Of a stretch of DNA of 57,376 nucleotides, positions 1,520 to 48,078 are shown piece by piece. Source of the stretch: Mollicutes bacterium (lineage in GTDB: Bacteria > Bacillota_I > Bacilli_A > RF39 > UBA660); assembly GCA_012837765.1 (NCBI GenBank), contig DUQO01000039.1, positions 1 to 57,376 of the forward strand. The letters are read 5' to 3'. Position 1 is the first letter of the stretch; each line of letters opens with the position of its first letter. The translations under genes and the position numbers were made by a program. The notes under the pieces were generated by a model that worked only from the letters and a program-made list of their open reading frames with translations, was not told the origin of the DNA and ran no database searches.

Positions 1520-1547
1520 GTCATACCTCCTTATCATGTACATTAAA

Positions 1548-1611: not shown

Positions 1612-1630
1612 AAATATAATAAAAATGGTA

Positions 1631-1685: not shown

Positions 1686-1743
1686 ATAACTTTTTATACA
1701 CGTGCAAGTAAAGCGGACGTACAGTTTACACTACAATTTGCTA

Positions 1744-2145
1744 CTATGGCGTTGTGACAGGCGTTGCAGTAACAGAGGCCTTAGTAGCACCAGTTGCCGT
1801 CCATGCTCCAAACTCACTATTAGCACTTGATGTAATAGTTACAGTTATTGGGTCCAAACTAGTAATCTCTGCTGCTGTATAATTGGTTGGATCTGCACCA
1901 TAATCGTCGATGTTAGCTAAAATGTCTCCTACGGCTGGAGTTGTGATATCAGTATCAATTGTTGATTGCAAAATTTGATACTCAATTCCAGTAATAATCA
2001 TTTTTACATCGGCTTCAAAAGCACTTCTCCTTGAATTATTGATTATACCAGAGATACCTGGTACTGCTATGGCTAAAATGATAGCCAAAATAACAATTAC
2101 TGCTAACAACTCGACTAATGTGAACCCTTTTTTCTTTTTCAACAT
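1744..2145 (-). CDS. Type IV pilin-like / pseudopilin paralog 4
   Basis: N-terminus is MLKKKKG|FTLVELLAVIVILAIILAIAVPG. GGAGGG SD. YGADPTNY and DPITVTITS motifs. T/P-rich C-terminal tail TATPVTTP. The 3' part is GC-enriched. Confidence 0.85.
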   Translation of the reverse strand: MLKKKKGFTLVELLAVIVILAIILAIAVPGISGIINNSRRSAFEADVKMIITGIEYQILQSTIDTDITTPAVGDILANIDDYGADPTNYTAAEITSLDPITVTITSSANSEFGAWTATGATKASVTATPVTTP

Positions 2146-2208
2146 GTTTACCCTCCTATCATGTCACAAAATATATCATCACATTATAATTTGTTAGCTT
2201 TAATTATT

Positions 2209-2859
2209 TTAATTATTGAATTTTAGTGAGTCAATAGCTACTTGATAATTTTCACTCATGACAACGTATGAACCAGTCACAAGCATATCAGCACCTGAAT
2301 CTAGACACAGTTTAGCATTTTCCTTATTTATGCCACCATCAACTGAAATAATAGTCTTTAAATTTCTTCTTTTAATCTCACCTTTTAGTATTCTTATCTT
2401 TTCAAGTGAAGAAGGCATAAATTCTTGACCACCATATCCAGGCTCTACACTCATAATCAAAATTAAATCAATGTTGTCTAACAAATTAAATGTTTCTTTG
2501 ATATCAGTAATAGGCTTAACTGAAAGTCCACACTTTATACCTTTCTTTTTTATTTTTTTTAGCAACTCAATATTTCCATTAAAAACTTCATAATGAATTG
2601 TCAAATATTCTATATTAAATGATGATAAATTATCGATATAAAAATCAATATCATCAACCATTAAATGAACATCAAGTGGTTTATTTGCAATTTTGTTTAT
2701 TTGTTCAATTCTTGAGAGCGGGAAATTAATTTCTTTAACAAATTTTCCATCCATAACGTCAATGTGAAAATAATCAAACTCTACTTCATTTAATTTTCTA
2801 ATGGTTTCATCATCGTTTTTTGATAGAACGGATACGGATATTTTGATCAACTTCATCAT
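2209..2859 (-). CDS. rpe: Ribulose-phosphate 3-epimerase
   Basis: HIDVMDGKFV, HLMV and MSVEPGYGGQEF motifs. About 216 aa. Sits after rsgA as in B. subtilis. The start could be either of two adjacent ATGs. Confidence 0.9.
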   Translation of the reverse strand: MMKLIKISVSVLSKNDDETIRKLNEVEFDYFHIDVMDGKFVKEINFPLSRIEQINKIANKPLDVHLMVDDIDFYIDNLSSFNIEYLTIHYEVFNGNIELLKKIKKKGIKCGLSVKPITDIKETFNLLDNIDLILIMSVEPGYGGQEFMPSSLEKIRILKGEIKRRNLKTIISVDGGINKENAKLCLDSGADMLVTGSYVVMSENYQVAIDSLKFNN

Positions 2860-3691
2860 CCTTTTCTTTTAAAAATTTTTGATAGTTTAAATATCTTGAT
2901 TTTAAAATAGCTCCATCATTTACAAGTTCTTTAATTTTACAATCATCTTCTTTTAAATGAAAGCAATCCCTATATTTACACTCTTCTTTAAAGTTTTCAA
3001 ATTCGATTATTGAATCCCTTATTGATTCTTTATCCATATTATAGAAATCAAGTGATGAAAACCCAGGTGTATCTGCAATCAACGAATTTCTTGTTTCAAG
3101 TAATTCTACATGTCTTGTTGTATGTTTTCCACGACCTAAGGCATGTGAAATCTTACTTGTTTTTAAATTTAGATTATTATCTAATTTGTTTAAAAGGGTT
3201 GATTTACCAACTCCACTTTGTCCTGTTAAAACAGTAATTTTGTTTTTTAATAAACTATGTATTTTTTCTGTTTGCTCATTAGTAAGCACTTCATAACCCA
3301 ATTTTTGATAATATTTTATATATTCATCCATTTTATTTCCCTCTTCACTACTAAGCAAATCTAATTTAGTGATACATATAATAGTATTTATATTATTATA
3401 GTTAATAATACTAATCATTTTATCTAAAAGATATAAATCAAAATTGGGTTCTTTAGCACTCATTACAATAAGAGCTTGATCAATATTACAAATTGGCGGT
3501 CTTAAAAGTTCATTTTTACGAGGCAAAAGCTCTATAATGAGCTTTTTTTCTTTATCAAATATTACTTTATCACCAACTAATGGCTTTAAATTTTCATTTT
3601 TAAATTTACCTCGTGCAGTACATTCAATATACTTATCTCCATACTTAACACGATATAAATTACTAATATTACATATTATTTGACCAACCAT
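2810..3691 (-). CDS. rsgA: Ribosome small-subunit biogenesis GTPase RsgA
   Basis: P-loop GQSGVGKSTLLN, DTPGF, and C-terminal Zn cluster CKYRDCFHLKEDDC. Start set at ATG 3691, 2 nt after the pknB stop. The upstream extension overlaps pknB. Confidence 0.9.
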   Translation of the reverse strand: MVGQIICNISNLYRVKYGDKYIECTARGKFKNENLKPLVGDKVIFDKEKKLIIELLPRKNELLRPPICNIDQALIVMSAKEPNFDLYLLDKMISIINYNNINTIICITKLDLLSSEEGNKMDEYIKYYQKLGYEVLTNEQTEKIHSLLKNKITVLTGQSGVGKSTLLNKLDNNLNLKTSKISHALGRGKHTTRHVELLETRNSLIADTPGFSSLDFYNMDKESIRDSIIEFENFKEECKYRDCFHLKEDDCKIKELVNDGAILKSRYLNYQKFLKEKDDEVDQNIRIRSIKKR

Positions 3692-3692
3692 C

Positions 3693-5417
3693 TTATTCTT
3701 CGCCTTCTGTATTCTCAGTATCTGGATCAAGAGATGCTTTCTCTTTAGTAATTTCAACTTTTAAAGTAACACCTTTAACAATACGAGATTCAGGCGATCT
3801 ACTTTGATAAATTACAATATCAGGTTCTTGTGTATCTGTTTCTTTGTACTCTATCTCTAAAACAATCTCATATTCATCAGCAAAAGCTCTAATATCAGCT
3901 TCAGACCATTTTTCACCTACAAAATCAGGATAGACATCATATATATTAGGAATATATAAAACAATTTCATCTCCTTCTTTTAATTCAGTACCAGCTTCAA
4001 CACTTTGATCTATAATTACATTTTCTTTATCACGATATAAAGTTACATCAGAAACATCTTTCTTTTCTTCTCTTACTGTAATACCTTTTAATATCAAAGA
4101 TGTTTTTGTTTCAATAAGGTCTTTTCCTATGTAATTTTCAATTACTACTATATTTTCACCTGTTGATTGATACAAGACGATAGTCGTTCCTTTTTTTATC
4201 ATACGACCAGCAGCTGGAGAAGTTTTAACTATTTTTCCTTCTTTTATAGTATTGCTACTGATTTGTTCAATATCGACTGCTATTTCAAAACCAGCATTTT
4301 TAAGTTTTGACTCTGCTTCTTCAACGCTTAAATTACTTACATCTGGTACTCTAACATCTGGTACTCTTGTTACAGCTGGATAAATTATAAATATTGAAAA
4401 TAGTAAAACCATTAAAGAAAGTAAAATACTTCCTAATATAATAAATGGTTTTTTATTTGGTTTATAATCATTTTCTTTAATTGGCTTAGCGATATTATCT
4501 ACCTCCTTATCTTCTTTTATTACAGGCAATACTTTTGTATCTTCTAAATCATGCTCTAAGTATTTATAAATATGACGTGGTTCATTTAACCTTTCTTCAT
4601 TCATTACTGTTTTTAAATCATCATACATTTCTCTAGCGTTATTATATCTATTTTTCGGATTTTTAGCTGATGCTTTAATTATAACGTTTTCAAGACTTTG
4701 AGGAACATCATTAAGTTCGCGTCTAAGAGATGGTAATGGATCTTTCATATGTTTTAAAGCAATTTCAACAGCATTTTCTCCTTTAAAAGGAAGTTTAGCT
4801 GTTAATAATTCATACATTAAAATTCCCAGGGCATAGATATCACTTTTAATAGTACTTCCCTTTCCAGCAGCTTGTTCTGGCGGAAGATAATGAACTGAAC
4901 CCATTACTGAATTAGTTTGAGTAAGCTGTGAACTATTAAGTGCCATAGCTATACCAAAATCCGTTATTTTCACTAATCCGTTTTCTAAAATTAAAATATT
5001 TTGAGGTTTTATATCACGATGTATGATATATGCATCATGTGCATGTGATAAACCATCTGTCAATTGAAGCATAATGTCAATTACTTCAGGAATTGTAAGA
5101 GCTCCTCTTTTTTTAATAAGTTGTTTTAAATTACGCCCCTCAATATATTCCATAACAATATAATAATCGCCATTATCTTCACCTACATCATACATTTCAA
5201 CAATATTAGGATGACTAAGTGATGATGCTGCTAAAGCTTCTCGTTGAAAGCGTCTAACAAATTTTTCATCATTTGCTAAATCGCCTCTTAAAACCTTAAC
5301 AGCAACTCTTCTTCCAAGAATAACATCTTCAGCTAAATAAACATTCGCCATGCCACCTTCACCCAATAATTTAATTATCTCATAGCGTCCATTTACTTTT
5401 TGACCTTTAACTACCAT
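3693..5417 (-). CDS. pknB: Ser/Thr protein kinase with extracellular PASTA repeats (PrkC/PknB type)
   Basis: GEGGMANVY...VAVK, HRDIKPQN and DFG motifs. One TM segment, then repeated PASTA-like modules. Confidence 0.92.
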   Translation of the reverse strand: MVVKGQKVNGRYEIIKLLGEGGMANVYLAEDVILGRRVAVKVLRGDLANDEKFVRRFQREALAASSLSHPNIVEMYDVGEDNGDYYIVMEYIEGRNLKQLIKKRGALTIPEVIDIMLQLTDGLSHAHDAYIIHRDIKPQNILILENGLVKITDFGIAMALNSSQLTQTNSVMGSVHYLPPEQAAGKGSTIKSDIYALGILMYELLTAKLPFKGENAVEIALKHMKDPLPSLRRELNDVPQSLENVIIKASAKNPKNRYNNAREMYDDLKTVMNEERLNEPRHIYKYLEHDLEDTKVLPVIKEDKEVDNIAKPIKENDYKPNKKPFIILGSILLSLMVLLFSIFIIYPAVTRVPDVRVPDVSNLSVEEAESKLKNAGFEIAVDIEQISSNTIKEGKIVKTSPAAGRMIKKGTTIVLYQSTGENIVVIENYIGKDLIETKTSLILKGITVREEKKDVSDVTLYRDKENVIIDQSVEAGTELKEGDEIVLYIPNIYDVYPDFVGEKWSEADIRAFADEYEIVLEIEYKETDTQEPDIVIYQSRSPESRIVKGVTLKVEITKEKASLDPDTENTEGEE

Positions 5418-22276: not shown

Positions 22277-24031
22277 TTACTGTTTTTGGAAAAAAATAAC
22301 AATTTCTTCTGCAACACGACGTGGCAAAATGGCACTAAGTTCTTCAACACTCGCTTCTTTTATTTTGTTTAAAGAACCAAATTTCTTTAATAAGGCCTTC
22401 TTCCTTTTTTCACCGACACCAGCTATATTATCTAAGACACTTTCTAAAGCTCCTTTACTTCTTATATCTTTATGATACCTTATAGTAAAATTATGAACTT
22501 CATTTTGCATTCTTTCTAACAAGTGAAAAACAGAAGAATGCGGATCAATTGGTATTTCTTTTCCTTTATATAATAAAGCCTTGGTTTTATGTTTTTCATT
22601 CTTTTTAAGACCACATATAGGAATATCCATCTCTAACATATCAAGCATTCTAGATGCTGCTTCAATTTGAATTTTACCTCCGTCTACAACAATTAAATCA
22701 GGAGCTTCTAACTTTTCCATTAAGACTCTATGATATCTTCTATAAATTACTTCTTTCATCAAATTAAAGTCATCTGCTTTATCACTAGTTATTTTAAATT
22801 TACGATACTCCCTTTTAGCAGGTTTTCCATCAATAAAGACAACCATCCCACTGACTGAAAACGTTCCGAAAAGATGTGAATTATCAAAAATCTCAACCCT
22901 ACTTAAATTATCAATTGAAAGTAATTCGCCCAGCGCCCTTGAAGCTTTATAATTGCGTTCCTCATTTCTATTTTCAAGTTCCACCTTTTCATCAAGTCCA
23001 ATTCGAGCATTTTTCATAGCCATATCTAATAATTGTCTTTTTTTGCCCCTTTGTGGGGTAATGGTTTTTATACCTAAAACATCACTTACTAATTTAGAGT
23101 TTATTATATCTGGTACCAAAATTTCCTTTGGTTTTAAATTGTTACTATCATAAAAAGAGCATATATAATATGTAAGAGCTTCTTCGTCTAAATCAAGAAG
23201 TGGATATAGTGTTGAATCTCGTTCCACCAATTTTCCACTTCTAATATGAAACACTTGAATTGCAATATAATTATTATCACTTGCATAACCAAATACATCA
23301 CGATCAACACTATCATTTAAATCAATAAGCTGTTTTTTTGATATAACTGCTATATCGTCTAATAAAGCCTTCATTTCAGAGGCTCTTTCAAAATTTAAAT
23401 TATCAGAAGCTTTATACATTTCAGATTCTATACTTTTAATTAAACCATCTTCATTTCCTTTTAAAAACTTGATTATTTCATCAGTCATATTTTTTATTGT
23501 TTTATTATCAATTTTGTGTATACAATAACCTGCACATTGTTTTATATGATAATATAAACACTCTTTAGAAGGAATTGTACGACACTTTCTTAAAGGGTAT
23601 ATTCTATTTAACATATTAACAATTTTTCTTGCAGCATAAGCATTTGGATACGGACCAAAAAGTCTTGAATTTTTTTTGCGTCTTAGGTGATCTCTTACGA
23701 CTAAAAGTCTAGGATATTGTTCATTTGTTAATTCAATATATGGATATGTTTTGTCATCTCTAAGCATAATGTTATATTTGGGATTATGTTTTTTGATAAG
23801 ATTTAATTCAAGAATCAAAGCTTCTTCTTCTGTTTTGGTAACGATATATTCAAAATCAACAATATTTTCTACTAAAGCTTTAGTTTTACCAGTATGTTCC
23901 CGATTAAAATATGTTACAACCCTCTTTTTTAAATCCTTTGCTTTTCCAACATATATAATAGTTCCTTTATTATTCTTCATTAAATAACAACCAGGTAAAT
24001 GTGGTAACAATTGTAACTTTTCTTTTATCAT
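22277..24031 (-). CDS. uvrC: Excinuclease ABC subunit C
   Basis: GIY-YIG N-terminus (PGCYLMKN...IIYVGKAKDLKKRV), UVR domain, and C-terminal HhH (GVGEKRKKALLKKFGS). Start at ATG 24031 with an AAAGGAGG SD. Confidence 0.92.
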   Translation of the reverse strand: MIKEKLQLLPHLPGCYLMKNNKGTIIYVGKAKDLKKRVVTYFNREHTGKTKALVENIVDFEYIVTKTEEEALILELNLIKKHNPKYNIMLRDDKTYPYIELTNEQYPRLLVVRDHLRRKKNSRLFGPYPNAYAARKIVNMLNRIYPLRKCRTIPSKECLYYHIKQCAGYCIHKIDNKTIKNMTDEIIKFLKGNEDGLIKSIESEMYKASDNLNFERASEMKALLDDIAVISKKQLIDLNDSVDRDVFGYASDNNYIAIQVFHIRSGKLVERDSTLYPLLDLDEEALTYYICSFYDSNNLKPKEILVPDIINSKLVSDVLGIKTITPQRGKKRQLLDMAMKNARIGLDEKVELENRNEERNYKASRALGELLSIDNLSRVEIFDNSHLFGTFSVSGMVVFIDGKPAKREYRKFKITSDKADDFNLMKEVIYRRYHRVLMEKLEAPDLIVVDGGKIQIEAASRMLDMLEMDIPICGLKKNEKHKTKALLYKGKEIPIDPHSSVFHLLERMQNEVHNFTIRYHKDIRSKGALESVLDNIAGVGEKRKKALLKKFGSLNKIKEASVEELSAILPRRVAEEIVIFFQKQ

Positions 24032-24074
24032 AATAGCACCTCCTTTCATAACATTATATCATGGTCTACTAAAT

Positions 24075-27678: not shown

Positions 27679-28110
27679 TTATACAAGAGTTTCCTTCTTT
27701 ATTTTGTCTAACCAAAAATAATCTTTATTAATAAAATCACAAACAAAAATGTTTTTTTCATAATCTTTTAATGTATCAAGAAAACTAGAATAATTGATAT
27801 TGGTTTTTATTTTTAAATGTGAGTTATATACTATCAACTTACTTATTTCATCATAATAAAGATTTTTGATTATATGAACATTGACATTTCTAGAATATGA
27901 TAATTCACCACAATGCCTATTATAAATATATTCATTAACATTATTTTTATTAAAAGGTATCGCAATCTGTTCAAAAATACGATATCCTAAAATTATATCG
28001 TTATTATTTAAATTATAAACTTGTTCAAATATTTTGTATAAAGATGATGGTCTTGAATTGTAAAAGTTTGAAAAAAAATCATTGACAATAAAAATGTAAT
28101 ATACACGCAT
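27679..28110 (-). CDS. Probable SirA/YneE-like sporulation inhibitor of replication (divergent)
   Basis: 143 aa, located between tkt and yneF exactly as sirA is in B. subtilis. N-terminus RVYYIFIVNDFFSNFY and C-terminus FVCDFINKDYFWLDKIKKE resemble remembered SirA segments. Confidence 0.5.
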   Translation of the reverse strand: MRVYYIFIVNDFFSNFYNSRPSSLYKIFEQVYNLNNNDIILGYRIFEQIAIPFNKNNVNEYIYNRHCGELSYSRNVNVHIIKNLYYDEISKLIVYNSHLKIKTNINYSSFLDTLKDYEKNIFVCDFINKDYFWLDKIKKETLV

Positions 28111-28174: not shown

Positions 28175-30190
28175 CTATCTAAAAAGTTTCTCTATTCTTT
28201 GTTTTATTTTGTCATAATTAAAATTACAGTAAGCAAGTACTTCTTCTTTAGTACCACTAGTTCCAAATTTATCGATTGTCATTAAATATTTTTCATTGTA
28301 TACAAAACGGAACCATCCAAAACTTGATCCTGCTTCAATTACAATTGTTTTGTAACCAACAGGGATAAGGTTTTGTTGATACTCTTCACTTTGCTCTAAA
28401 AATTTTTCAACGCAAGGCATACTTATAACACGTAAATCAATACCATCCTTATATAATTCCTCGGCTACTTTAATAGCTAAAGGTACTTCGCTTCCTGTTG
28501 CAATAATAATACCTGTTAGACGAACTACTTCTTTTCTAACAATATAAGCACCTTTTGATACTTCCTCCATACTTGAGTTACTTAATAATTCAGCCTCATC
28601 ACGAGAAATAACAATTGCACTAGGTTTATTTTTTCTTAAAATAGCATTCCATGAACCAACTATTTCCCTCGCGTCAGCTGGTCTATAAACATCTAAATTT
28701 GGCGTGCTCCTAAGCATCGATAATTGTTCAATCGGTTGATGTGTTGGCCCATCTGGACCGACATTAACTGAATCATGGGTAAACACATATGTTACAGGAA
28801 GATTCATCAAACAAGACATTCTTATAGCTGGTTTTAAATAATCTGAAAAAGATAAAAAAGTACTTCCAAACGCTCTAAAACCAGATAATGATAAACCATT
28901 CATTATAGCACCCATAGCATGTTCTCTAACCCCAAAAAATATATTACGGCCATCAAAAGACGAATTACTAAAGACAGGATATTTTTGTAAACGGGTCTTT
29001 GTAGAAGATGCTAAATCTGCACTACCACCTAAAAAGTTGAAAATATAATCTGCTATTACTCCCATGATCTTACCATTCGTATCACGAAGTGGTTCTTTAA
29101 AATCTTCACTGAATTGCCACATAACTTTTGGCAAGTTTATATTAAAAGCTAGATTGTTTTTAATTAACATTGTTAATTCTTGTTTCACATTATCTGCTGC
29201 TTTTTCCATATATTCTTTATAAATCTTTGTCCAATTGCTATATTTTGGACCTGATCTACTAGCAATCATCGTTCTAAATTCTTGAGTTGCATCATTTGAT
29301 ATTGAAAAAGGTATACCTCTAACATCTAAAGTTGATTTTAATTGCGTAATATCTTCTTTTGTCAACGGTTTACCATGGACAGTATTTGTTCCAGCTATTA
29401 GAGAACCTTTACCAATAATTGTTTTAACTTCAATGATAGAAGGTCTGTCAACAACTTTTTTAGCTCTTACAATAGCTTTATCTATTTCATCAACATTATC
29501 TCCATCTTTTACAATGGTTGTATGCCACCCCATTGCTTCAAAACGTTTTAACACATCTTCTTTAAAGCTTATATCAGTATTTCCATCCAGCGAAACATTA
29601 TTTGAATCATAAAGAACTATCAATTTTCCTAGTTGATAGTTTCCTGCTAAAGAAGCAGCTTCATAACTAACTCCTTCCATTAAATCACCATCACTGCATA
29701 AAACATATGTGTAATAATCAAACAAATTGTTTTCCGTTGTAAAAAGGCCTTTCTTCTTTTCGTTATATTTTGTACTTAAGATTTTTTCAGCAATAGCCAT
29801 TCCAACAGCAGTAGCAAATCCTTGTCCTAATGGACCAGTACTAACATCAACACCAGGTGTAACTCCATATTCTGGGTGTCCAGGCGCTTTAGATCCTACT
29901 CTTCTAAATGCTTTAAGATCATCTAGTGTAAGTTTATATCCTGCTGCAAATAAAGTTGCATAAAGCAAAGCTGAACCATGTCCTGCTGACATAACAAAAC
30001 GATCACGATTTATCCACTTTTCATCTTCAGGATTAATATTCATATGCTTTGCATATAAAGTATATATTATTGGTGCTGCTCCTAAAACAATTCCAGGATG
30101 ACCAGAACCAGCTGTGTCGATCATATCAATAGCCAAAGCTTTAATATTATCAACTATTTTTTTATCAATATTTTTTATTTCTTTTGCCAT
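28175..30190 (-). CDS. tkt: Transketolase
   Basis: GSGHPG, SDGDLMEG and THDSVNVGPDGPTHQPIE motifs. ATG 30190 is preferred over the GTG at 30199, which sits on the SD. Confidence 0.93.
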   Translation of the reverse strand: MAKEIKNIDKKIVDNIKALAIDMIDTAGSGHPGIVLGAAPIIYTLYAKHMNINPEDEKWINRDRFVMSAGHGSALLYATLFAAGYKLTLDDLKAFRRVGSKAPGHPEYGVTPGVDVSTGPLGQGFATAVGMAIAEKILSTKYNEKKKGLFTTENNLFDYYTYVLCSDGDLMEGVSYEAASLAGNYQLGKLIVLYDSNNVSLDGNTDISFKEDVLKRFEAMGWHTTIVKDGDNVDEIDKAIVRAKKVVDRPSIIEVKTIIGKGSLIAGTNTVHGKPLTKEDITQLKSTLDVRGIPFSISNDATQEFRTMIASRSGPKYSNWTKIYKEYMEKAADNVKQELTMLIKNNLAFNINLPKVMWQFSEDFKEPLRDTNGKIMGVIADYIFNFLGGSADLASSTKTRLQKYPVFSNSSFDGRNIFFGVREHAMGAIMNGLSLSGFRAFGSTFLSFSDYLKPAIRMSCLMNLPVTYVFTHDSVNVGPDGPTHQPIEQLSMLRSTPNLDVYRPADAREIVGSWNAILRKNKPSAIVISRDEAELLSNSSMEEVSKGAYIVRKEVVRLTGIIIATGSEVPLAIKVAEELYKDGIDLRVISMPCVEKFLEQSEEYQQNLIPVGYKTIVIEAGSSFGWFRFVYNEKYLMTIDKFGTSGTKEEVLAYCNFNYDKIKQRIEKLFR

Positions 30191-30224
30191 GTATAACACA
30201 TCCTTATTATAAGTGTATTATACC

Positions 30225-30251
30225 AAAAAACCTTTACTTTTAAAAGTAAAG
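30225..30251 (-). terminator. Rho-independent terminator of the SOS small ORF
   Basis: CTTTACTTT (30232-30240) / AAAGTAAAG (30243-30251). The plus-strand A6 run (30225-30230) gives a T-run on the minus strand. Begins 4 nt after the ORF stop. Confidence 0.7.
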
Positions 30252-30255
30252 ATTA

Positions 30256-30387
30256 TCATTTTACATTTGCAACAAGTTGCCTATCAACTATCTCCTCTAC
30301 TTCATTTAGTCTTTCAAAGCGCCAAGAGCATAGAAATAAATAAGCAATAACAACTACACAAGTAATTAAAACTCCTTTAATATTCAT
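30256..30387 (-). CDS. Unannotated 43-aa single-TM peptide, LexA-controlled (candidate SOS effector)
   Basis: ATG 30387 is preceded by AAAAGGAG with 9-nt spacing. Translation: MNIKGVLITCVVVIAYLFLCSWRFERLNEVEEIVDRQLVANVK. It has its own consensus promoter with an embedded LexA box and its own terminator. Too short for the ORF track. Confidence 0.7.
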   Translation of the reverse strand: MNIKGVLITCVVVIAYLFLCSWRFERLNEVEEIVDRQLVANVK

Positions 30388-30413
30388 ATTCTTCAACTCC
30401 TTTTCATGCTTTC

Positions 30414-30442
30414 ATTATATAACGAACTTTTGTTCGTGTCAA
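30414..30442 (-). promoter_or_regulatory. Consensus sigma-A promoter of the small ORF
   Basis: On the minus strand: TTGACA (30437-30442), 17-nt spacer, TATAAT (30414-30419). The spacer contains the LexA box. Confidence 0.8.
30423..30436. promoter_or_regulatory. LexA operator (Cheo box), perfect palindrome CGAACTTTTGTTCG
   Basis: Matches the Gram-positive GAAC-N4-GTTC consensus exactly. Lies between the divergent lexA and small-ORF promoters. Confidence 0.85.
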
Positions 30443-30451
30443 GACTAATCA

Positions 30452-30465
30452 CAAACATTTGTTTG
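30452..30465. promoter_or_regulatory. Degenerate second LexA-box-like palindrome CAAACATTTGTTTG
   Basis: AAAC-N4-GTTT palindrome overlapping the lexA -35. One substitution per half-site relative to GAAC/GTTC. Confidence 0.4.
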
Positions 30466-30491
30466 ACTTTTTACATTGTGTGTGATAAAAT
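30463..30491 (+). promoter_or_regulatory. Putative lexA promoter
   Basis: TTGACT (30463-30468), 17-nt spacer, TGaTAAAAT (30486-30491). Confidence 0.6.
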
Positions 30492-30523
30492 GTAAACAAT
30501 GAAAAAAATAAGGAGGAAATATA

Positions 30524-31141
30524 TTGAATAATTTGACGCCAAGGCAAGAACAAGCTTTAACATTTATAAAAGAACAAATTGCAAAAAATGGATATCCACC
30601 TACGGTAAGGGAAATAGGACAACATTTAGGTTTATCTTCTCCAGCTACTATTCAAGTTCACCTTTCTAACCTTGAAGAAAAAGGATATATCAAAAAAGGT
30701 GGTAACAAAAACAGGGCTATTGAATTATTGGTGGAGAATGAATTTTTAAATCAAAATGATGGTTTAGTAAAAGTACCATTACTTGGTAAGGTTACAGCCG
30801 GTTCACCTATTGAAGCAATTGAAAGGCCAAATGAGTTTTTTTCATTACCTGCTTATCTTATACCAAATAAAAAAGAAGTATTTACACTTGATGTAAGTGG
30901 TGACAGTATGATAAATGCCGGCATTTTTGACGGTGACATTGTAGTGGTACAAAGGCAAAGCAATGCTAACAATGGAGATATTGTAGTAGCTATGACTGAT
31001 GAAAATGAAGTTACGTTAAAAAGATTTTATAAAGAAAAGGATCATGTTAGATTACAACCAGAAAACGATTCCTTAGCACCAATTATATTACCTAATGTTA
31101 GTATTCTTGGTAAAGCTATTGGATTATATCGCAAAATATAA
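30524..31141 (+). CDS. lexA: LexA repressor
   Basis: TTG start with AGGAGG 7 nt upstream. wHTH N-terminus. Ala-Gly cleavage site (VTAGSP), GDSM Ser and LKRF Lys. Confidence 0.93.
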   Translation: MNNLTPRQEQALTFIKEQIAKNGYPPTVREIGQHLGLSSPATIQVHLSNLEEKGYIKKGGNKNRAIELLVENEFLNQNDGLVKVPLLGKVTAGSPIEAIERPNEFFSLPAYLIPNKKEVFTLDVSGDSMINAGIFDGDIVVVQRQSNANNGDIVVAMTDENEVTLKRFYKEKDHVRLQPENDSLAPIILPNVSILGKAIGLYRKI

Positions 31142-31167
31142 AGAGTGAAAAAAATTCACTCTTTTTT
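31141..31167 (+). terminator. Rho-independent terminator of lexA
   Basis: AAGAGTGAA (31141-31149) / TTCACTCTT (31155-31163) plus TTTT. Confidence 0.75.
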
Positions 31168-32113
31168 ATAATTTTAATAAAAACAATTCTAGACCAACAG
31201 TTTTATCGATCTTTCCCATTTTAATTTTTTCGTCTAAATCAGCAAGAGATATAATGTGTTTCAAAAGTTCCTTTTCATCTAAGTTTGATTCTTTTGCAAG
31301 TTTTACTCTATATGGATGAACTGCCAATTGAGATGCTATTTGACTTTCACTAAGCCCTTTAGCCCTAAACCTTTTAACTTGAAAAATCAATCTAAACTGA
31401 TTAGCAAGCATTACAATAATTTTAATTGGTTCTTCATTTCTTTTTAACAATTCTTGATATAAAGATAAAGCTTTATTTACATCTTTTTTTATAACTGCAT
31501 CAGTAAGGGAAAACAGGTTGTCCACATCATATTTTTCAATCATTTTATCTATATCATCATCATCAATTTGTTTTTCATCATTTTTATAAAGCATCAATTT
31601 ATCACATTCACTATTTAACAAATAAAGATTGTTACCTGTTTTATCAATCAACTTATTTAATGCATTAAATGTAATTTGAAAATCATTTTTGTTAAATATT
31701 TCTTTAGCAAACTTGACCGCTTCATCTTCACTAAACTTTGTAAATTCTTTTACGACTGCTTGATTTAATATTTTTTTAACAATTGCTTTTCGTTTATCTA
31801 AATTATTATAAGTAATAAAGATAACGATTACATCTCCATTAAGTTTATCAAGATGTTTTAATAAATTATCAACATCATGATTAATTTTTTCTTTGGTGGA
31901 ACTACTGCTAAAAAAATCAGCATTATACCCTATTATTATTTTATGATCATTAAATAAGGAAATTGAAAAAGCATCTTCTAATAAAACATTTACATTGATT
32001 TCAGATAAGTCATATTTTATTACTTGTCCATTTGAATGCTTTTTAATGATATTCTCTACTTCTTTATCAATAAGAAATGGTTCCTCACCACAAAAAACAT
32101 AAACACCCTTCAT
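31166..32113 (-). CDS. holA: DNA polymerase III delta subunit
   Basis: 315 aa. N-terminus VYVFCGEEPFLI. Position after comEC as in B. subtilis. Confidence 0.8.
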   Translation of the reverse strand: MKGVYVFCGEEPFLIDKEVENIIKKHSNGQVIKYDLSEINVNVLLEDAFSISLFNDHKIIIGYNADFFSSSSTKEKINHDVDNLLKHLDKLNGDVIVIFITYNNLDKRKAIVKKILNQAVVKEFTKFSEDEAVKFAKEIFNKNDFQITFNALNKLIDKTGNNLYLLNSECDKLMLYKNDEKQIDDDDIDKMIEKYDVDNLFSLTDAVIKKDVNKALSLYQELLKRNEEPIKIIVMLANQFRLIFQVKRFRAKGLSESQIASQLAVHPYRVKLAKESNLDEKELLKHIISLADLDEKIKMGKIDKTVGLELFLLKL

Positions 32114-35540: not shown

Positions 35541-36698
35541 TTAATAGAGTTGTTTCCCCCCTTTTAAAACTCTTTCTTGAAGTTTTCTTTTATTTTCAAT
35601 TTCAACCCTTTGTACTAATGCAAGCAAGATTGCTAAGTTAAGCGCATATGAACCACCATAACTTAAAAATGGAAGTGGTACCCCTGTTAAAGGTAATAAT
35701 CCTAATAAACCAGTTAAATTAACAACAATATGTAGGAAAATATAAACAGCTGTTCCGTAAGCTATAACAGACCCCATAAGGTTGTGAGATCGATAAGCAA
35801 TACGAATAATTGATGTCAAAATAATGGTATATATAATCATTATTACAATACCAACTATTAGTCCTAATTCCTCTAAAATTATAGCCATAATAAAGTCAGT
35901 ATGAGCTTCTGGTAAATATAAATATTTTTGAGTACTATTACCTAGACCAACACCCCATAAACCTCCATTATTGATAGCTATAAAGCCATTACAAACATGA
36001 TAACCGGATCCGCCACTTAAATATTTAGCGCAAGGTTGTTTATAATCAAGTCTTTCCAATTGCCCTTTGCTCAACAAAGAATTTCCTGTAATTAGAACAA
36101 ACGCTAAAACAATCACACCTATTAAACCAATAAACTTAAGAATTACTTTCTTGATATTTTTATCTAACGGAATACTAAAAAAGGTAATAGCTGTAAGTGC
36201 AACAATAATAAAAGCTGTTCCAAAATCAGGTTGTATAAAAGTAAGACCCGCCATCATAGCGGCCGCTACAAGAGGTGTAAAGATAACAATAAGTTTGTTA
36301 CTATCCTTATTCTTGTTATAGTAAACGGCCATATAAAGAATAATTACTGTTTTGGCAAATTCACTAGGCTGATAGTTAAAGAACCCCAGTGGTATCCAGC
36401 TTTTAGCCCTATTTATAATAGCTCCATATAAATATACTACGACAAGAGATCCTAAAATAATTAGTACAAAAAGAAAAGCAAATCTCTTATATAACTTTAA
36501 AGGTAATGATATAACAACAAGTGATATTATAAGACATATAATAAGAATGATTGATTGCCTAATGAAATAGTAATATGGGGCTCCAGTCAAAGAAGCCTTT
36601 ACACTAGAAGCACTAAATATCATAAAAAGCCCAAAAACAAACATTACTATTGTCCAAAATAATAAGCTTTTATCCATTTTTGTAATTTTACTTCTCAT
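35541..36698 (-). CDS. ftsW: SEDS-family peptidoglycan polymerase (FtsW/SpoVE/RodA)
   Basis: About 10 TM helices. PEAHTDFI and LPLTGVPLPFLSYGGS motifs. Confidence 0.88.
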   Translation of the reverse strand: MRSKITKMDKSLLFWTIVMFVFGLFMIFSASSVKASLTGAPYYYFIRQSIILIICLIISLVVISLPLKLYKRFAFLFVLIILGSLVVVYLYGAIINRAKSWIPLGFFNYQPSEFAKTVIILYMAVYYNKNKDSNKLIVIFTPLVAAAMMAGLTFIQPDFGTAFIIVALTAITFFSIPLDKNIKKVILKFIGLIGVIVLAFVLITGNSLLSKGQLERLDYKQPCAKYLSGGSGYHVCNGFIAINNGGLWGVGLGNSTQKYLYLPEAHTDFIMAIILEELGLIVGIVIMIIYTIILTSIIRIAYRSHNLMGSVIAYGTAVYIFLHIVVNLTGLLGLLPLTGVPLPFLSYGGSYALNLAILLALVQRVEIENKRKLQERVLKGGKQLY

Positions 36699-41475: not shown

Positions 41476-42177
41476 CTAATATTTATATGCCTTTACAACC
41501 GATTTAAGTTTTCTTATAACTTTCTTTTCTATTCTTGAAATATATGATTGTGATATACCTAACAATTCAGCTACATCCTTTTGAGTCATTTCTTCTTTTT
41601 TTTCTAATCCATATCTTAATACCATAATTTTTTTATCCCGCGGATCTAATTTTTCTATTTCTTCAATTAACATTTCTCTTTCAACTTCAGATTCTAATTC
41701 TCTTGTAACTATATCAGGTTCTGTTCCTAAAACATCTTCCAAATGTAATTCATTACCATCCATATCAAAACTAAGTGACTCTTCAAAACTAACCTCACAT
41801 CTTCTTCGTTTATTTTTTCTAAGAAACATTAATATTTCATTATCAATACACCTAGAAGCATATGTTGCTAATTTAATGTTTTTATCCATTTTATATGTAT
41901 TTATAGCTTTAATTAAACCAATTGTACCAATACTTACTAAATCTTCTAAATCAATATTAGTATTTTCATATTTTTTTGCTAAAAAAACGACTAATCTTAA
42001 ATTATGTTCTATTAACTTATTTTTCGCATCTACATCCCCCTCAGCTTTTAATTCTAGATAATATTGCTCCATATCTTTTGTTAAAGGTTCTGGTAAAATA
42101 TCAGTACTACCAACAAAAAAAACTTGTTTTGCTCTAAAAAATATATTTAACAACTTTTGTATTACTTTTCTAATCAT
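41476..42177 (-). CDS. sigE: Mother-cell sigma factor precursor pro-SigE
   Basis: ATG 42177 has a GGAGGG SD inside the spoIIGA 3' end. Pro-sequence, then LPEPLTKDMEQYYL, KLATYASRCIDNEILMFLRK and ISQSYISRIEKK. Confidence 0.9.
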   Translation of the reverse strand: MIRKVIQKLLNIFFRAKQVFFVGSTDILPEPLTKDMEQYYLELKAEGDVDAKNKLIEHNLRLVVFLAKKYENTNIDLEDLVSIGTIGLIKAINTYKMDKNIKLATYASRCIDNEILMFLRKNKRRRCEVSFEESLSFDMDGNELHLEDVLGTEPDIVTRELESEVEREMLIEEIEKLDPRDKKIMVLRYGLEKKEEMTQKDVAELLGISQSYISRIEKKVIRKLKSVVKAYKY

Positions 42178-42178
42178 T

Positions 42179-42967
42179 TTATCCCTCCAATAATTTAGTA
42201 TGTAATATACAATCCACACCATCAATATTAATTTTTTTTTCTGATATTCCTATTAATAAATTAGTTCTTATGCCTACTCCTAAAATTACTATTTTATCTG
42301 GTTTAATGCATTTTAAAAGACCTTTATGATTTAATGATTCATACGGAACTAAAATAACATCTTCCTCGTTATAACGATTTTCTAACTCACTCTTTGATAC
42401 TAAAATAATAGGTCTTTTACGATAAGGATCAATTAGGTGATTGCCTGTATCTAAAAAAGCACTAACATTTATTTTTTTATCTTTATAATATATGTCCACT
42501 AAATAGTAATTAGAATAATTATTTTTAAGATATAAACCTTGTTTCAAATATAAATATAAAATAAGAGGAGAAGAAAAAAGAAGAACTATCCAATTGATAC
42601 TAAGACCATTATGATAAAAAATTAATCCTTCTTGTTTGTATGAAAATTCAACATTTAATAAATATAAAAAACCACCTAATACAATACTTGTCATATATAA
42701 ATATAAGAGATTACGAAAAGTATATTTTAAATCCTTATATTTAAAACTAGTTATAACCATAAGAATGCTAGTACACATTTTTAAAGCAAACAACTGAATT
42801 GATGAAAGATCTAAAAATAAAAACAAAATTGATAAGGAACCTATGAAAGAACCTAATAACAATCTTTTCAATGAAGCATAACGCCTTAACAAAAGGCCTA
42901 CTACCATCAAAAGAAGAAAATCAAACAAAAAATTCAAAATTAAGATGAGATCTAAATATACTTTCAC
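42179..42967 (-). CDS. spoIIGA: Sigma-E processing aspartic protease SpoIIGA
   Basis: GTG 42967 has an AGGTGA SD. N-terminus (V)KVYLDLILILNFLFDFLLL. Five or so TM helices. FLDTGN catalytic motif. The longer track ORF starts inside the terminator hairpin. Confidence 0.85.
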   Translation of the reverse strand: MKVYLDLILILNFLFDFLLLMVVGLLLRRYASLKRLLLGSFIGSLSILFLFLDLSSIQLFALKMCTSILMVITSFKYKDLKYTFRNLLYLYMTSIVLGGFLYLLNVEFSYKQEGLIFYHNGLSINWIVLLFSSPLILYLYLKQGLYLKNNYSNYYLVDIYYKDKKINVSAFLDTGNHLIDPYRKRPIILVSKSELENRYNEEDVILVPYESLNHKGLLKCIKPDKIVILGVGIRTNLLIGISEKKINIDGVDCILHTKLLEG

Positions 42968-42990
42968 GTTATCACCTAAAAATAGTATAA

Positions 42991-43021
42991 AAAAAAGACA
43001 CATCATAAAGTGTCTTTTTTT
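42991..43021 (-). terminator. Hairpin terminator immediately after ftsZ
   Basis: AAAAGACAC (42993-43001) / GTGTCTTTT (43010-43018), flanked by an A-run and a T-run. On the minus strand T8 follows the stem. Confidence 0.75.
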
Positions 43022-43024: not shown

Positions 43025-44086
43025 TTAATCAACATTTTTGTTTCTTCTTAAAAAAGGAGGTATATCTAATTCTGTTTCTAATTCTTCAACTATTTTTTCA
43101 GGTGTATAAACTTCTTCTTTAACTAATTCTGGATTAACTGGTTCTTCAAAACCGGTTGCAATAATTGTAACAACTACTTCATCATTTAAGGCTTCGTTAA
43201 TTACTGCTCCAAATATTACGTTAATATCAGTATTAGCAGCTGACCTAACAACTTCTGCTGCATCTTCAACCTCAAATAATGTTAAACCTGCACCTCCTGT
43301 TACGTTGATAATAGCATTGGTCGCACCAACGATACTTGACTCAAGTAATGGAGATGACACAGCTTGTTTAGCCGCTTCAATAGCTCTATTTTCACCTGAT
43401 CCTATACCTATACCAATAAGAGCGTTACCACTCTTTTCCATTACTGACTTAACGTCTGCAAAGTCAAGGTTGATAAGTCCTGTTACAGCTATAAGGTCAG
43501 ATATTGATTGAACACCTCGTCTTAATACATTATCTACTTCTCTAAACGAATCGACAAGCGAAGTAGATTTGTCGATGATTTCTCGTAATCTATCGTTAGG
43601 AATTATTATTAAAGTATCAACATGTTTCTTTAGTTCTTCTAAACCGTGTAGTGCATGCGCCATACGTTTTTTACCTTCAAAGCTAAATGGCTTAGTTACA
43701 ATTCCCACAGTTAGAGCACCTAAGCTTTGAGCTATTTCGGCAACAACAGGAGCAGCTCCTGTTCCGGTTCCGCCACCCATTCCACATGTAACAAAGACCA
43801 TGTTCGCGTCTTTTAAAGCATCTCTTATTTCATCTTTTGATTCTAAAGCGGCTTCCTTACCTACAGAAGGATTAGCTCCAGCACCCAATCCATTAGTTAT
43901 CTTTTGACCAATTTGTAATTTAATTGGGGCTTTTGAACTATTTAAAACTTGTAAATCAGTATTAACAACAATAAATTCAACACCTTTAACGCCTGATTCA
44001 ATCATACGATTAACGGCATTATTTCCTGCACCACCAATTCCTACTACTTTAATTTTTGCTATTTGATCCATTTCTAATCCAAACAT
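43025..44086 (-). CDS. ftsZ: Cell division GTPase FtsZ
   Basis: [13 protein letters not shown] and [11 protein letters not shown] motifs. AGGAGG SD. Confidence 0.95.
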
Positions 44087-44099: not shown

Positions 44100-45347
44100 C
44101 TATTTATCAAAAAAGTATCCAAAGACTTTTCCTAGTATCGAGTCTTCAGTAATATTCAATACCCCTTTTCGTGACGAAAGCAGTTCTTCTTCATCATCCT
44201 CATCAAACATTGTATATTTTTTACCTCTCAGATTTAACTTTTCATGAAAGAACTTTATCATTCCAGACAAAGCAGCATATCTATTATCTCTAATACCCAT
44301 CGTTTCAATATTACCAATTCTTGCTTCTTTACCAAAAATATCACCTGTTAAAGAAGACATGCCAGGCATTTCACTCATACCGCCTGTAATTATTATATAA
44401 CTATTTTCCTTATTTGTTAAGAGCGAAGCTTGCTTTTTTGCAAGTTTCAGTATTTCAACTACTCTAGACATTACTATTTCTGATACTTCTAATTGATTTA
44501 ATCTTATTTCCTTTTTATAAGTATCGAAAACTTCTATTATTTCACTACCCTGTGCATATTGTCTATTAGCAATAGCAAAAGATTCTTTTAGTTTTAATGC
44601 ATCTTCTCGGCTTATTTTTTTTATATACGCAATATCGTTATCAATATTACGGCCACCTAAAGGAATAGTTTCAGCTGCTTTAATGACTCCCTTTTCAAAG
44701 GTTGCTACATTTGTAAGATCTGATCCAATACTTATTATAGCACCTGATAACTTGTCCATATCTTTATTACGGTATTCAAAATATTCACCTATAACACCAA
44801 TGTTAGTATCGATTACTTCTAAGCCTAAGCTTTCTAAGATACTTATTATTGCATACAAGTTCTTTTTTGATGTCATAACGTTTATAGCTCTTACACCAAG
44901 TTTCTTTCCAACCATACCTTTCGGGTCTTTAATTCCAGCTTTGTTATCTAAAACAAATTCTATAGGTATAATTGTTACAAGTTCTTCATCATTACCCACT
45001 TTGTTATATACACAAGCTTGAAGTGCCCTAGTTATATCATTACCAGTTACCTTACCATCTTCGTTATCGATAGTAGCATACCCATCTACTTCATTAAATT
45101 TCATCGAATACAATGGAATGCTTGCAATAACCTTTTTGATTTTTACACCTAGTTTTCCTTCAGCTATATCGATTGCTTCTTTGATGCTTGACATAACCTC
45201 ATTCGCATCTATAATCAACCCTTTTTTGACTCCTTTAGTTCTAACACAAGAGGTTGTTAAAACAATTAATCGGCCTTTAAACATTTCGCCAACTAATATT
45301 TTAATGCTACTTGAGCCTATATCAATACTAGTGTATATTCTTCTCAT
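44100..45347 (-). CDS. ftsA: Cell division protein FtsA
   Basis: IDIGSSSIK actin-fold motif. ATG 45347 has an AAAGGTGA SD. C-terminal amphipathic tail. Confidence 0.92.
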   Translation of the reverse strand: MRRIYTSIDIGSSSIKILVGEMFKGRLIVLTTSCVRTKGVKKGLIIDANEVMSSIKEAIDIAEGKLGVKIKKVIASIPLYSMKFNEVDGYATIDNEDGKVTGNDITRALQACVYNKVGNDEELVTIIPIEFVLDNKAGIKDPKGMVGKKLGVRAINVMTSKKNLYAIISILESLGLEVIDTNIGVIGEYFEYRNKDMDKLSGAIISIGSDLTNVATFEKGVIKAAETIPLGGRNIDNDIAYIKKISREDALKLKESFAIANRQYAQGSEIIEVFDTYKKEIRLNQLEVSEIVMSRVVEILKLAKKQASLLTNKENSYIIITGGMSEMPGMSSLTGDIFGKEARIGNIETMGIRDNRYAALSGMIKFFHEKLNLRGKKYTMFDEDDEEELLSSRKGVLNITEDSILGKVFGYFFDK

Positions 45348-45404
45348 GACAATCACCTTTGTACTTCTTTAATTATACTATAAATCCAAAAAAAAAACCA
45401 ATGA

Positions 45405-46082: not shown

Positions 46083-46988
46083 TTACTCCCAATTGACAAA
46101 TTCCTGTTCAACAAATAAATCCACATTGTATTTTTCTTTAACGGTTTTTTTAACATCCATTATCAATTTTTTAATATCTTCTGCAGTTGCATTATCGTAA
46201 TTTATAATAAAATTAGCATGTTTTGGACTAACTAATGCCCCTCCTATTGCTTTCCCCTTCAATCCTGCTTCTTCAATAAGACGTCCTGCAAAATCATTTG
46301 AAGGATTTCTAAAGACACTTCCAGCACTTGGATATTCTAAAGGTTGAGATAGCAGTCTTTTTTGTTTCCTGTCTTCTATTAAATCTATTATTTCTTTAAC
46401 ATCAGCTTTTCTTAGAACAAGTGTCGCTTCAAGACAAATATAACCTTCATTGTGTTGCAAAAAAGAATCACGATAGTGAAAATCTAAATCTCTATTGAAT
46501 AATTCTTTTATTTCTAAATCTTTAGTCAACACTTTTATACTACTTGTAATATATCCCATATCAGATTTATAGGCACCTGCATTCATATAAATGGCTCCAC
46601 CTACAGTACCAGGGATACCTGTTGCAAATTCAAGACCTGAAAAGCCCATTTTTGATAATTTATAAGCTAGTCTCATTAAGTTATATCCAGCCCCAACAGT
46701 TATAACAGTATCATTTATTTTAAGTTCATCAAAAGAATCTAGTTTGATTATGACACCTTCATATGGTTTGTCACTAAAAATAACATTAGAACCATTACCT
46801 AATACTTTATATTTAATTTTGTTTTCCCTTAATATTTCAATAAGTTTGATTAGTTTTTCAACATTATTAGGATATACAATAAGTGATGCTACACCACCTA
46901 CTCTATACGTTGTATATTTAGATAGAGGTATGTCTTCAATATAATCACCTATTTTATGTTTCTTAATCTCGGTTATTAGGTTTTTCAT
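46083..46988 (-). CDS. murB: UDP-N-acetylenolpyruvoylglucosamine reductase
   Basis: LSKYTTYRVGG, LGNGSN and PSAGSVFRNP motifs. ATG 46988 has an AAGAGG SD. Confidence 0.9.
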   Translation of the reverse strand: MKNLITEIKKHKIGDYIEDIPLSKYTTYRVGGVASLIVYPNNVEKLIKLIEILRENKIKYKVLGNGSNVIFSDKPYEGVIIKLDSFDELKINDTVITVGAGYNLMRLAYKLSKMGFSGLEFATGIPGTVGGAIYMNAGAYKSDMGYITSSIKVLTKDLEIKELFNRDLDFHYRDSFLQHNEGYICLEATLVLRKADVKEIIDLIEDRKQKRLLSQPLEYPSAGSVFRNPSNDFAGRLIEEAGLKGKAIGGALVSPKHANFIINYDNATAEDIKKLIMDVKKTVKEKYNVDLFVEQEFVNWE

Positions 46989-48078
46989 CTTTGCCTCTTT
47001 CATTTACTAATTTATACGCTATATCATATATGCGTTTTGCACTGTCACGAATAACTAGTTTTGTTAAGTTTTTCTTAATTTTATTATATTTTTCAGTGTT
47101 TTTTAACAATTCCTCTATTGTACGTACTAAAATATCTCCATTTAAGTCCTTTTCTTCAATTACTAAAGTTGCTTCTTTATCTTGTAAATCCATTGCATTT
47201 TTAAATTGATGGTTATTAGTTACATATGGACTTGGAATCAATATTGTAGGTACATTTAAAGCAATTATTTCACTCATTGTAGTAGCTCCTGCTCTTGAAA
47301 CCATTACATCTGTTACCTTCATTAGTCTAGGCATATCATCGATATAAGGAACAACTTTAATGTTTGGTGATAACTTTAATTTTTTAAATTGGTCATAATA
47401 ATTTTTTCCAGTAACAAAAACAACCTCATAATCTTTATTATTAAATAATTGTAACATCATTTTCATCTTATCATTGATAACTGTTGAACCAAGAGAGCCC
47501 ATTACAATTAATATTAATTTCTTATTTTTTGATAACCCCAACTCTGTTTTATTCATCTTCGTTTTCTTTAAAGCTTCTTCACTACATGGGTTTCCTGTAA
47601 ATACTACCTTTTTCTTATCACTAATGTAGTTTATTGTGCTTTCAAAGGATGTTGCAATAACATCAGCATATTTTATAAGAAAGCGATTAGTGAGACCTAA
47701 CACACTATTTTGTTCATGAATAATAGTTTTGTAACCTAACTTTTTAGCTGCATAGATAACAGGCGCTGTTACATAACCACCTACTCCTATAACAACATCA
47801 GGTTTAAATTTTTTAATTAGTTTTTTAGCTTCCTTTATAGCTTTAAAAAAGCATCGTATTGTTTTTATATTATTAAATATATTTTTTCTGTCAACACCTA
47901 TAATTGTAAGCGGTTCGTACTTTATACCGTATTTAGGAACAATATCCTTTTCCATTCGATTATGAGTACCAATATATAGAAATTCACTATCAGGTTCTTC
48001 TTTTTTTATTTTGTTTATAATTGCTAGAGCTGGGTAAATGTGCCCCCCTGTGCCACCAGCACTTACTATGACTCTCAT
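46963..48078 (-). CDS. murG: Lipid II-forming GlcNAc transferase MurG
   Basis: SAGGTGGHIYPALA N-terminus. GT28 architecture. Confidence 0.92.
   Translation of the reverse strand: MRVIVSAGGTGGHIYPALAIINKIKKEEPDSEFLYIGTHNRMEKDIVPKYGIKYEPLTIIGVDRKNIFNNIKTIRCFFKAIKEAKKLIKKFKPDVVIGVGGYVTAPVIYAAKKLGYKTIIHEQNSVLGLTNRFLIKYADVIATSFESTINYISDKKKVVFTGNPCSEEALKKTKMNKTELGLSKNKKLILIVMGSLGSTVINDKMKMMLQLFNNKDYEVVFVTGKNYYDQFKKLKLSPNIKVVPYIDDMPRLMKVTDVMVSRAGATTMSEIIALNVPTILIPSPYVTNNHQFKNAMDLQDKEATLVIEEKDLNGDILVRTIEELLKNTEKYNKIKKNLTKLVIRDSAKRIYDIAYKLVNERGKDEKPNNRD

Follow-up and report, generated by a model that had tools for sequence, protein, structure and literature searches.

Which gene, if any, lies divergent from lexA in the genomes of uncultured Bacilli, and what would its product do? 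In Gram-positive bacteria, genes adjacent to lexA commonly encode LexA-repressed division inhibitors that have a single transmembrane (TM) segment with the C-terminus outside and show little mutual homology, such as YneA, SosA, DivS, and ChiZ (PMC6851548). The question is raised here by contig DUQO01000039.1, a stretch of 57,376 nucleotides labelled Mollicutes bacterium, which was analyzed over its full length and is referred to below as the window. A first-pass annotation, made from the sequence alone, had claimed that positions 30,225 to 30,523 contain a complete transcription unit that is operated by LexA and encodes a membrane peptide of 43 residues, located where yneA or sosA would be. 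We conclude with high confidence that this is a real LexA-operated membrane-peptide gene.

Promoter, operators, and reading frame divergent from lexA

The elements of the unit and of the adjoining lexA region are listed below.

30442-30414, minus strand: peptide-gene promoter TTGACA-17 nt-TATAAT (-35 at 30442-30437, -10 at 30419-30414)
30436-30423, minus strand: LexA box 1, CGAACAAAAGTTCG, in the spacer of this promoter, adjoining the -35 and separated from the -10 by 3 nt
30404-30397, minus strand: Shine-Dalgarno sequence AAAAGGAG, 9 nt before the ATG
30387-30256, minus strand: 43-residue open reading frame (ORF) MNIKGVLITCVVVIAYLFLCSWRFERLNEVEEIVDRQLVANVK, with the ATG at 30387 and the TGA stop at 30258-30256
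30254-30225, minus strand: intrinsic terminator identified by folding (hairpin 30254-30229), with an 11-bp AU-rich stem, a UUAA loop, and U6
30217-30244, minus strand: tkt promoter-like site TTTAAA-16-TATAAT with TG, identified by promoter scan and overlapping the terminator
30452-30465: LexA box 2, CAAACATTTGTTTG, degenerate, overlapping the -35 of the lexA promoter
30463-30491, plus strand: lexA promoter-like site TTGACT-17-TAAAAT, with TG before the -10
30524-31141, plus strand: lexA, with a TTG start 7 nt after AAGGAGG

The consensus promoter, the perfect GAAC-N4-GTTC in its spacer, the Shine-Dalgarno sequence, and the ORF were all found where the first-pass annotation had placed them, and the translated peptide was identical. 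The peptide-gene promoter scored 12/12 in the promoter scan and is the single perfect TTGACA-N17-TATAAT of the window, where 0.09 were expected. Likewise, box 1 is the only perfect GAAC-N4-GTTC (0.25 expected). When the window was scored with a position-specific scoring matrix (PSSM) made from the equivalent boxes of 52 other species, with the window's own box left out, box 1 was the top site at 19.2 bits, compared with a mean maximum of 13.2 on shuffled sequence. Box 2 ranked second (17.3 bits). The two boxes are 29 bp apart, centre to centre, and a box at the position of box 2 was found again in most relatives; it is presumed to be the operator of lexA autoregulation. The lexA promoter-like site itself scored 10/12 in the promoter scan.

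The operator in box 1 is of the Cheo type, CGAAC-N4-GTTCG, and is placed to block the promoter, a perfect copy lying between the -35 and -10 elements. The promoter and box together follow the consensus TTGACACGAAcAa.TGTtcgtg.TA.aAT, derived from 54 loci, each from a different species. A LexA-like box, AAAACAAATGTTCG, is also present ~70 nt upstream of recA in one relative (L091), which argues that the motif is valid in this clade. The PSSM scan gave no LexA-box match near the upstream region of uvrC (22277-24049, minus strand), and the lexA-peptide intergenic region appears to be the sole convincing LexA target within this 57 kb. The strength and conservation of the operator point to LexA regulation of the peptide gene.

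The repressor gene itself is well defined. The lexA product contains the Pfam LexA_DNA_bind and Peptidase_S24 domains and scored 229 bits, over the cut-off, against NCBIfam TIGR00498. Its translation has Ala-Gly at residues 92-93 as the cleavage site, together with the GDSM serine motif at 126 and the LKR lysine motif at 165, the features that LexA self-cleavage requires.

Conservation of the peptide gene beside lexA

A word-indexed protein search with the single peptide as query found only the peptide itself. Homologues emerged only via lexA loci, by reading the ORFs divergent from lexA. The sample consisted of 80 species-level genomic loci whose LexA is 64-86% identical to that of the window, and the divergent DNA was read in each. 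All 80 genomes are metagenome-assembled genomes (MAGs) of uncultured Bacilli from gut or digester metagenomes, labelled Mollicutes, Tenericutes, or Firmicutes. At 64 of the 80 loci, a near-consensus promoter with a LexA box opening its spacer and a Shine-Dalgarno-like sequence were found together with an ORF of 37-55 codons, divergent from lexA and encoding one hydrophobic segment; about 14 loci have no peptide ORF. The Shine-Dalgarno sequence of the window is kept in its closest relative (L001). In two genomes (L056 and L073) the promoter and two high-scoring LexA boxes are retained, while the ORF has just 28 and 32 codons, essentially the TM segment; these are either decaying genes or a sign that the TM part alone functions.

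The number of operators follows the ORF. At least two LexA boxes were found in 57 of the 64 loci with the ORF and in 1 of 13 loci without it (Fisher p = 1.6e-8), and this co-occurrence of the extra box with the ORF argues that the ORF is what the operator controls. The next gene downstream is variable (tkt, an M16 peptidase pair, a yneF-like gene, a polA-like gene, and others), while adjacency to lexA is constant, so the peptide gene belongs with lexA and not with its downstream neighbour. Moreover, a family member recovered by sequence alone in an exhaustive search (P0060) is also divergent from lexA.

Several tests pointed to translation. Among 36 peptide pairs with at least 50% identity, the ratio of nonsynonymous to synonymous substitution rates (dN/dS) was 0.12-0.66, with third-position changes in excess; picking pairs by peptide identity lowers dN, but the codon-position pattern is unaffected by that bias. 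At this base composition, the chance of a 43-codon open frame is ~0.03 per locus. The window peptide scored 23.5 bits against a profile of 62 species from which the window and its closest relative had been left out. Controls shuffled within segments (N-flank, TM, and tail) scored 2.9 on average and 16.9 at most, and 0 of 2000 reached 23.5 bits. Judged by these comparisons, the ORF is translated and evolves under purifying selection, and the peptide encoded in the window truly belongs to the family. The claim of a complete LexA-operated unit encoding a single-pass membrane peptide at the yneA/sosA position is thus strongly supported by recurrence in 64 of 80 genomes, by purifying selection, and by operator-ORF co-occurrence. 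The gene had also been described as unannotated. This holds in that it has no name and no family; public gene callers do call it, and the window peptide already appears as an unnamed 43-residue protein (P0001) on six metagenomic contigs.

These data also bear on the idea that the ORF is incidental and that the LexA promoter serves a non-coding RNA or a downstream gene (tkt or others) under SOS control. The hairpin and T-run claimed to follow the stop codon are present, though weak (centroid -8.8 kcal/mol, z = -1.8). A consensus terminator scan found nothing in the peptide-gene region, since a scan of this kind misses an AU-rich hairpin with too few G-C pairs. The window hairpin is base-for-base identical in the closest relative, but a comparable hairpin with a T-run occurs in only ~19 of the 64 relatives. 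The terminator is therefore not a conserved feature of the family, read-through is plausible in many genomes, and in relatives without terminators it may add to the SOS output. The two relatives with truncated ORFs that keep both boxes also fit an incidental ORF. On the other side, 64 species preserve the frame, the length, the Shine-Dalgarno sequence, and the TM architecture, dN/dS is below 1, the sequence signature of the family exceeds composition, and the downstream gene is not conserved. In the window, the ORF is followed by the terminator and a separate promoter-like site for tkt, which argues that tkt is independent of the LexA-controlled promoter. Rfam gave no family match across 29500-31500. 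An incidental ORF is, in our estimate, very improbable.

Some loci differ downstream of the operator. In one relative (L033), a 60-residue ORF, MEYYTIKDIQLLTGYSRRKVCLIIKKLNQEI..., lies between the LexA-box promoter and the peptide ORF, ~170-350 nt upstream of lexA on the divergent strand. It may encode a helix-turn-helix or excisionase-like protein, and the pair looks like a two-gene LexA-controlled operon. At most of five further loci (L015, L017, L024, L029, and L035), a polA-like gene, MKKVILVDGNNLLFRSYYATAY..., comes after the peptide ORF with no detectable terminator; L035 has only a weak 7-bp AT-rich hairpin. LexA-controlled transcription may read into the DNA polymerase I gene in these genomes. 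In two other genomes (L092 and L093, positions 1-3060), the DNA upstream of lexA is phage-like and encodes a reverse transcriptase, a Phage_tail_APC protein, and a CHAP/CW_7 lysin, which suggests a prophage or diversity-generating retroelement near the SOS locus.

Peptide architecture and proposed function

The window peptide has one predicted TM helix at approximately residues 5-22, followed by a polar, net-acidic tail of ~21 residues. Alignment of the 64 members revealed a K-rich N-terminus (M-[KM]-[KE]-h-L-K-K-x-G) and a hydrophobic stretch of typically ~18-23 residues with a conserved F-Y pair and a Kyte-Doolittle mean of 2.3-2.6. Next comes a membrane-proximal motif, S-x-R-[FVI]-x-[RK]-L-[END] (SWRFERLN in the window), then an N-, E-, and S-rich polar linker, and last a C-terminal motif, N-x-x-[IVL]-x-h-N-x-K (DRQLVANVK in the window). 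All 64 peptides carry more positive charge in the N-flank than in the C-flank, and by the positive-inside rule the N-terminus is predicted to be in and the tail out. AlphaFold2, given a 55-sequence alignment, modelled one helix over residues 3-40, with a predicted local distance difference test (pLDDT) score of 86-95 in the membrane part. Translation and membrane insertion are thus supported by comparative and physicochemical evidence.

Pfam and NCBIfam scans of the window peptide and of all 64 members gave no meaningful family match: LysM is absent from the window peptide and from the 64 members by Pfam scan, and no match to the YneA model of NCBIfam was seen among the 64 members at E up to 1. 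A sub-threshold resemblance to DUF6814 in Pfam (5 of the 64 members, best E = 3.6e-4) and one sub-threshold match each to YpmT, YldA, and YonT among the 64 members are probably noise due to TM composition. A profile search of a collection of 5.8 billion sequences returned 59 proteins of 37-67 residues, none of which had a Pfam domain or was named by function. An exhaustive HMMER profile search of 1.84 billion representatives returned 73 matches, nearly all of 39-65 residues, and did not reach LysM-bearing proteins. The long profile matches (1390, 1337, 398, and 163 residues; several matched stretches) look low-complexity and were set aside, one of them (P0093) being visibly a tandem repeat. 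The sole profile match near SosA length is a 71-residue protein, whose extra length is an N-terminal extension. Literature searches turned up no description of this peptide family. The absence of LysM and of any relation to YneA, proposed in the first-pass annotation, is thus upheld by Pfam, NCBIfam, and profile searches alike. The family is unnamed, its members are ~40-55 residues long, homology to YneA was not detected, and the two are probably analogous rather than homologous.

An N-terminus and architecture of this kind could also belong to an exported-peptide precursor, whose Sec signal peptide would be cleaved to free a C-terminal fragment of ~10-20 residues, acting as an SOS signal (of a size like that of Phr or AimP) or shed in inactive form. 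The n-region, the h-region, the polar C-terminal part, whose extreme end is conserved, and the length of 37-55 residues fit such a precursor; the Phr, NprX, and AimP precursors are similar in architecture and length. Small residues follow the hydrophobic core in several subfamilies (e.g., ...ISA/LDN), and YneA is itself cleaved and released, which is a further point in favour. However, the uncharged stretch of ~18-23 residues is long enough to span the membrane, and the best-conserved extracytoplasmic residues are Arg and Lys right after the hydrophobic core, a placement that disfavours Sec cleavage and export. The AlphaFold2 helix runs on through this post-core region, and no Rap, RRNPP, or AimR-type receptor gene was adjacent to the peptide gene in the loci examined. 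We regard export of a peptide signal as quite unlikely.

A type-I-toxin-like peptide had been offered in the first-pass annotation as an alternative to a division inhibitor. A LexA-controlled membrane toxin of the TisB/DinQ type would dissipate the proton-motive force and slow growth or aid persistence, with no divisome target. The peptide is small with one hydrophobic segment, it is under a LexA operator, its AlphaFold2 model is a single long helix, and one family member weakly matched the NCBIfam model of the type I toxin YonT (E = 0.1, not significant). The mRNAs of type I toxins typically have long, translation-inactive 5' untranslated regions (UTRs). In contrast, the leaders of the relatives are short (the start codon lies 16-32 nt past the -10) and have a strong Shine-Dalgarno sequence. 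A promoter-like site scoring at least 10/12 was found on the opposite strand in 6 of the 64 loci, the window not among them, compared with 25 of 64 on the sense strand; this was a consensus scan, which a divergent promoter could escape. The lack of a conserved antisense promoter and the short leader together argue against a type I toxin, as does the negative Rfam result. In addition, a polar tail carrying conserved motifs makes up about half of the peptide, and the gene is single-copy and fixed beside lexA across wide divergence, unlike the patchy, multi-copy type I loci. The toxin alternative is thus disfavoured, and we consider it unlikely.

The remaining possibility, an SOS-induced division inhibitor that resembles YneA and SosA in position, regulation, and architecture, is the one we prefer, with somewhat better than even confidence. 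In undamaged cells, LexA dimers would occupy both intergenic operators, one covering the -35 of lexA itself and the other filling the spacer of the divergent sigma-A promoter, so that the peptide promoter would be occluded. DNA damage would lead to RecA-stimulated self-cleavage of LexA and would free the promoter. A short-leader mRNA with a strong ribosome-binding site would then be made, stopping at the hairpin. The 43-residue product would enter the membrane as a single-pass peptide, with its K-containing N-terminus inside and its tail of ~21 residues outside, and would transiently block a late step of division, as YneA, SosA, and SidA do. The likeliest route would be binding of the TM helix to the septal peptidoglycan synthase formed by a SEDS (shape, elongation, division, and sporulation) protein and a class B penicillin-binding protein (bPBP). 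The helix extension with S-x-R-[FVI]-x-[RK]-L and the N-x-K end may supply inhibitory determinants, turnover determinants, or both. The divisome target is proposed by analogy with known inhibitors. A more specific form of the idea, in which the family is a minimal LysM-free SOS checkpoint of ~40-55 residues whose TM helix docks on FtsW while an extracellular helix of ~20 residues blocks septal peptidoglycan synthesis, is put forward only tentatively.

Several observations weigh against a division inhibitor. The Pfam, NCBIfam, and profile searches revealed no sequence relationship to any proven inhibitor, and it is by position, regulation, and architecture that the role is assigned. Charge asymmetry is weaker in the window peptide than in any other family member, with K4 alone ahead of the TM segment and two Arg immediately behind it, and AlphaFold2 confidence in the tail is low (pLDDT 52-71). 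The function appears dispensable, since ~14 of the 80 genomes are without the gene and two have a TM stub only. Finally, YneA's TM domain by itself goes to the division site without inhibiting division, for which binding of LysM to peptidoglycan is needed (PMC13396833); a LysM-free tail of 21 residues must therefore work differently.

A candidate target is present in the host. The window encodes divisome and peptidoglycan genes, which are listed here together with a PASTA kinase.

43025-44086: FtsZ
44100-45356: FtsA
46963-48078: MurG
46083-47003: MurB
35541-36698: FtsW/RodA-family SEDS protein
3693-5417: PASTA kinase

The neighbours of the peptide gene were identified by Pfam and NCBIfam as LexA, transketolase (tkt), a SirA-family protein, and a UPF0154/YneF-family protein. 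The two databases agree on the order that the first-pass annotation had given, lexA / X / tkt / sirA / yneF, where X is the peptide gene; it corresponds to the order in B. subtilis, lexA / yneA ... / tkt / sirA / yneF. The SirA-family gene (27679-28110, minus strand) is over the Pfam cut-off. Directly after ftsA-ftsZ, as in B. subtilis, are a SpoIIGA-like gene (42179-43006) and a SigE-like gene (41476-42225), both on the minus strand and both under the NCBIfam equivalog cut-offs. The nearest genomes carry Mollicutes or Tenericutes MAG labels despite such sporulation-type genes, which suggests that the lineage is a walled, possibly spore-forming group of Bacilli that has been mislabelled.

A small membrane SOS division inhibitor beside lexA is a known arrangement, and a specialist would not be surprised to meet one here. 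What is new is that the protein family is unrelated and unusually small, that it extends widely through a large uncultured lineage, and that it has a clearly defined set of motifs. SOS-induced membrane division inhibitors are known in a handful of cultured Gram-positive bacteria and share almost no sequence. In this family, a very small candidate inhibitor is available in dozens of natural variants, with a conserved, predicted extracellular motif and a fixed regulatory context, in hosts with an ordinary FtsZ/FtsA/SEDS divisome. The peptide further illustrates how a conserved protein of fewer than 50 residues can be left with neither name nor family in public annotation. If the peptide is a division inhibitor, it would be a compact system for mapping the minimal needs for shutting down FtsW-type synthases, and the rule of looking beside lexA would be extended to a large uncultured lineage. 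If it acts as a minimal SEDS inhibitor, it would be a natural one with the defined motif S-x-R-[FVI]-x-[RK]-L ... N-x-K. Should the product prove to be a toxin or an exported peptide instead, Bacillota would have an SOS output of a new kind.

Comparison with known SOS-controlled membrane proteins

The E. coli toxins TisB and DinQ are small, hydrophobic, helical, and LexA-controlled; the peptide resembles them in its small size, its hydrophobic segment, its modelled helix, and its predicted control by LexA. They are governed by antisense RNA antitoxins and have long regulated 5' UTRs, whereas the peptide locus has a short leader and no conserved antisense promoter; the conserved polar tail and the fixed place beside lexA also set the peptide apart from them. 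SidA of Caulobacter (29 residues) is, as predicted for the peptide, a very small, single-TM, LexA-controlled protein, and acts on the late divisome proteins FtsW and FtsN. It belongs to another phylum, is not lexA-adjacent, shows no sequence similarity to the peptide, and has almost no extracytoplasmic tail. As SidA is a checkpoint effector, a peptide as small as the one described here can be one too.

DivS of Corynebacterium and ChiZ (Rv2719c) of Mycobacterium are SOS-induced division suppressors and, like the peptide, are lexA-adjacent and have a single TM segment. DivS is also LysM-free (PMC6851548), while ChiZ has LysM. Both are actinobacterial, larger than the peptide, and unrelated to it in sequence.

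YneA of B. subtilis and Listeria shares several features with the peptide: a gene divergent from lexA in a corresponding neighbourhood, a LexA box in the promoter, one TM segment at the N-terminus and an outside C-terminus (both predicted for the peptide), and a host with FtsW-type SEDS and divisome genes. YneA works on FtsW via its TM domain, and AlphaFold3 models suggest FtsW binding for SosA, ChiZ, and SidA as well (PMC13396833). YneA consists of ~105 residues, with TM and LysM domains, whereas the peptide has 43 residues, is LysM-free, and cannot bind peptidoglycan through LysM. The description of the peptide as less than half the size of YneA or SosA is correct for YneA and incorrect for SosA, which has 77 residues.

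SosA of Staphylococcus, like the peptide, is divergent from lexA and LysM-free, and it is, as predicted for the peptide, LexA-repressed, with an N-terminal TM segment and an extracellular C-terminal part. SosA is most conserved immediately outside the membrane and at its very C-terminus (PMC6851548), and it has been proposed to act by extension of its helix past the membrane (PMC13396833). The peptide family has the same pattern of membrane-proximal and C-terminal conservation and a helix that extends beyond the membrane. The peptide is shorter than SosA, with a tail of ~21 residues compared with ~47. SosA homologues have been described in staphylococci only, and no homology of the peptide family to SosA is evident from the lengths of its profile matches.

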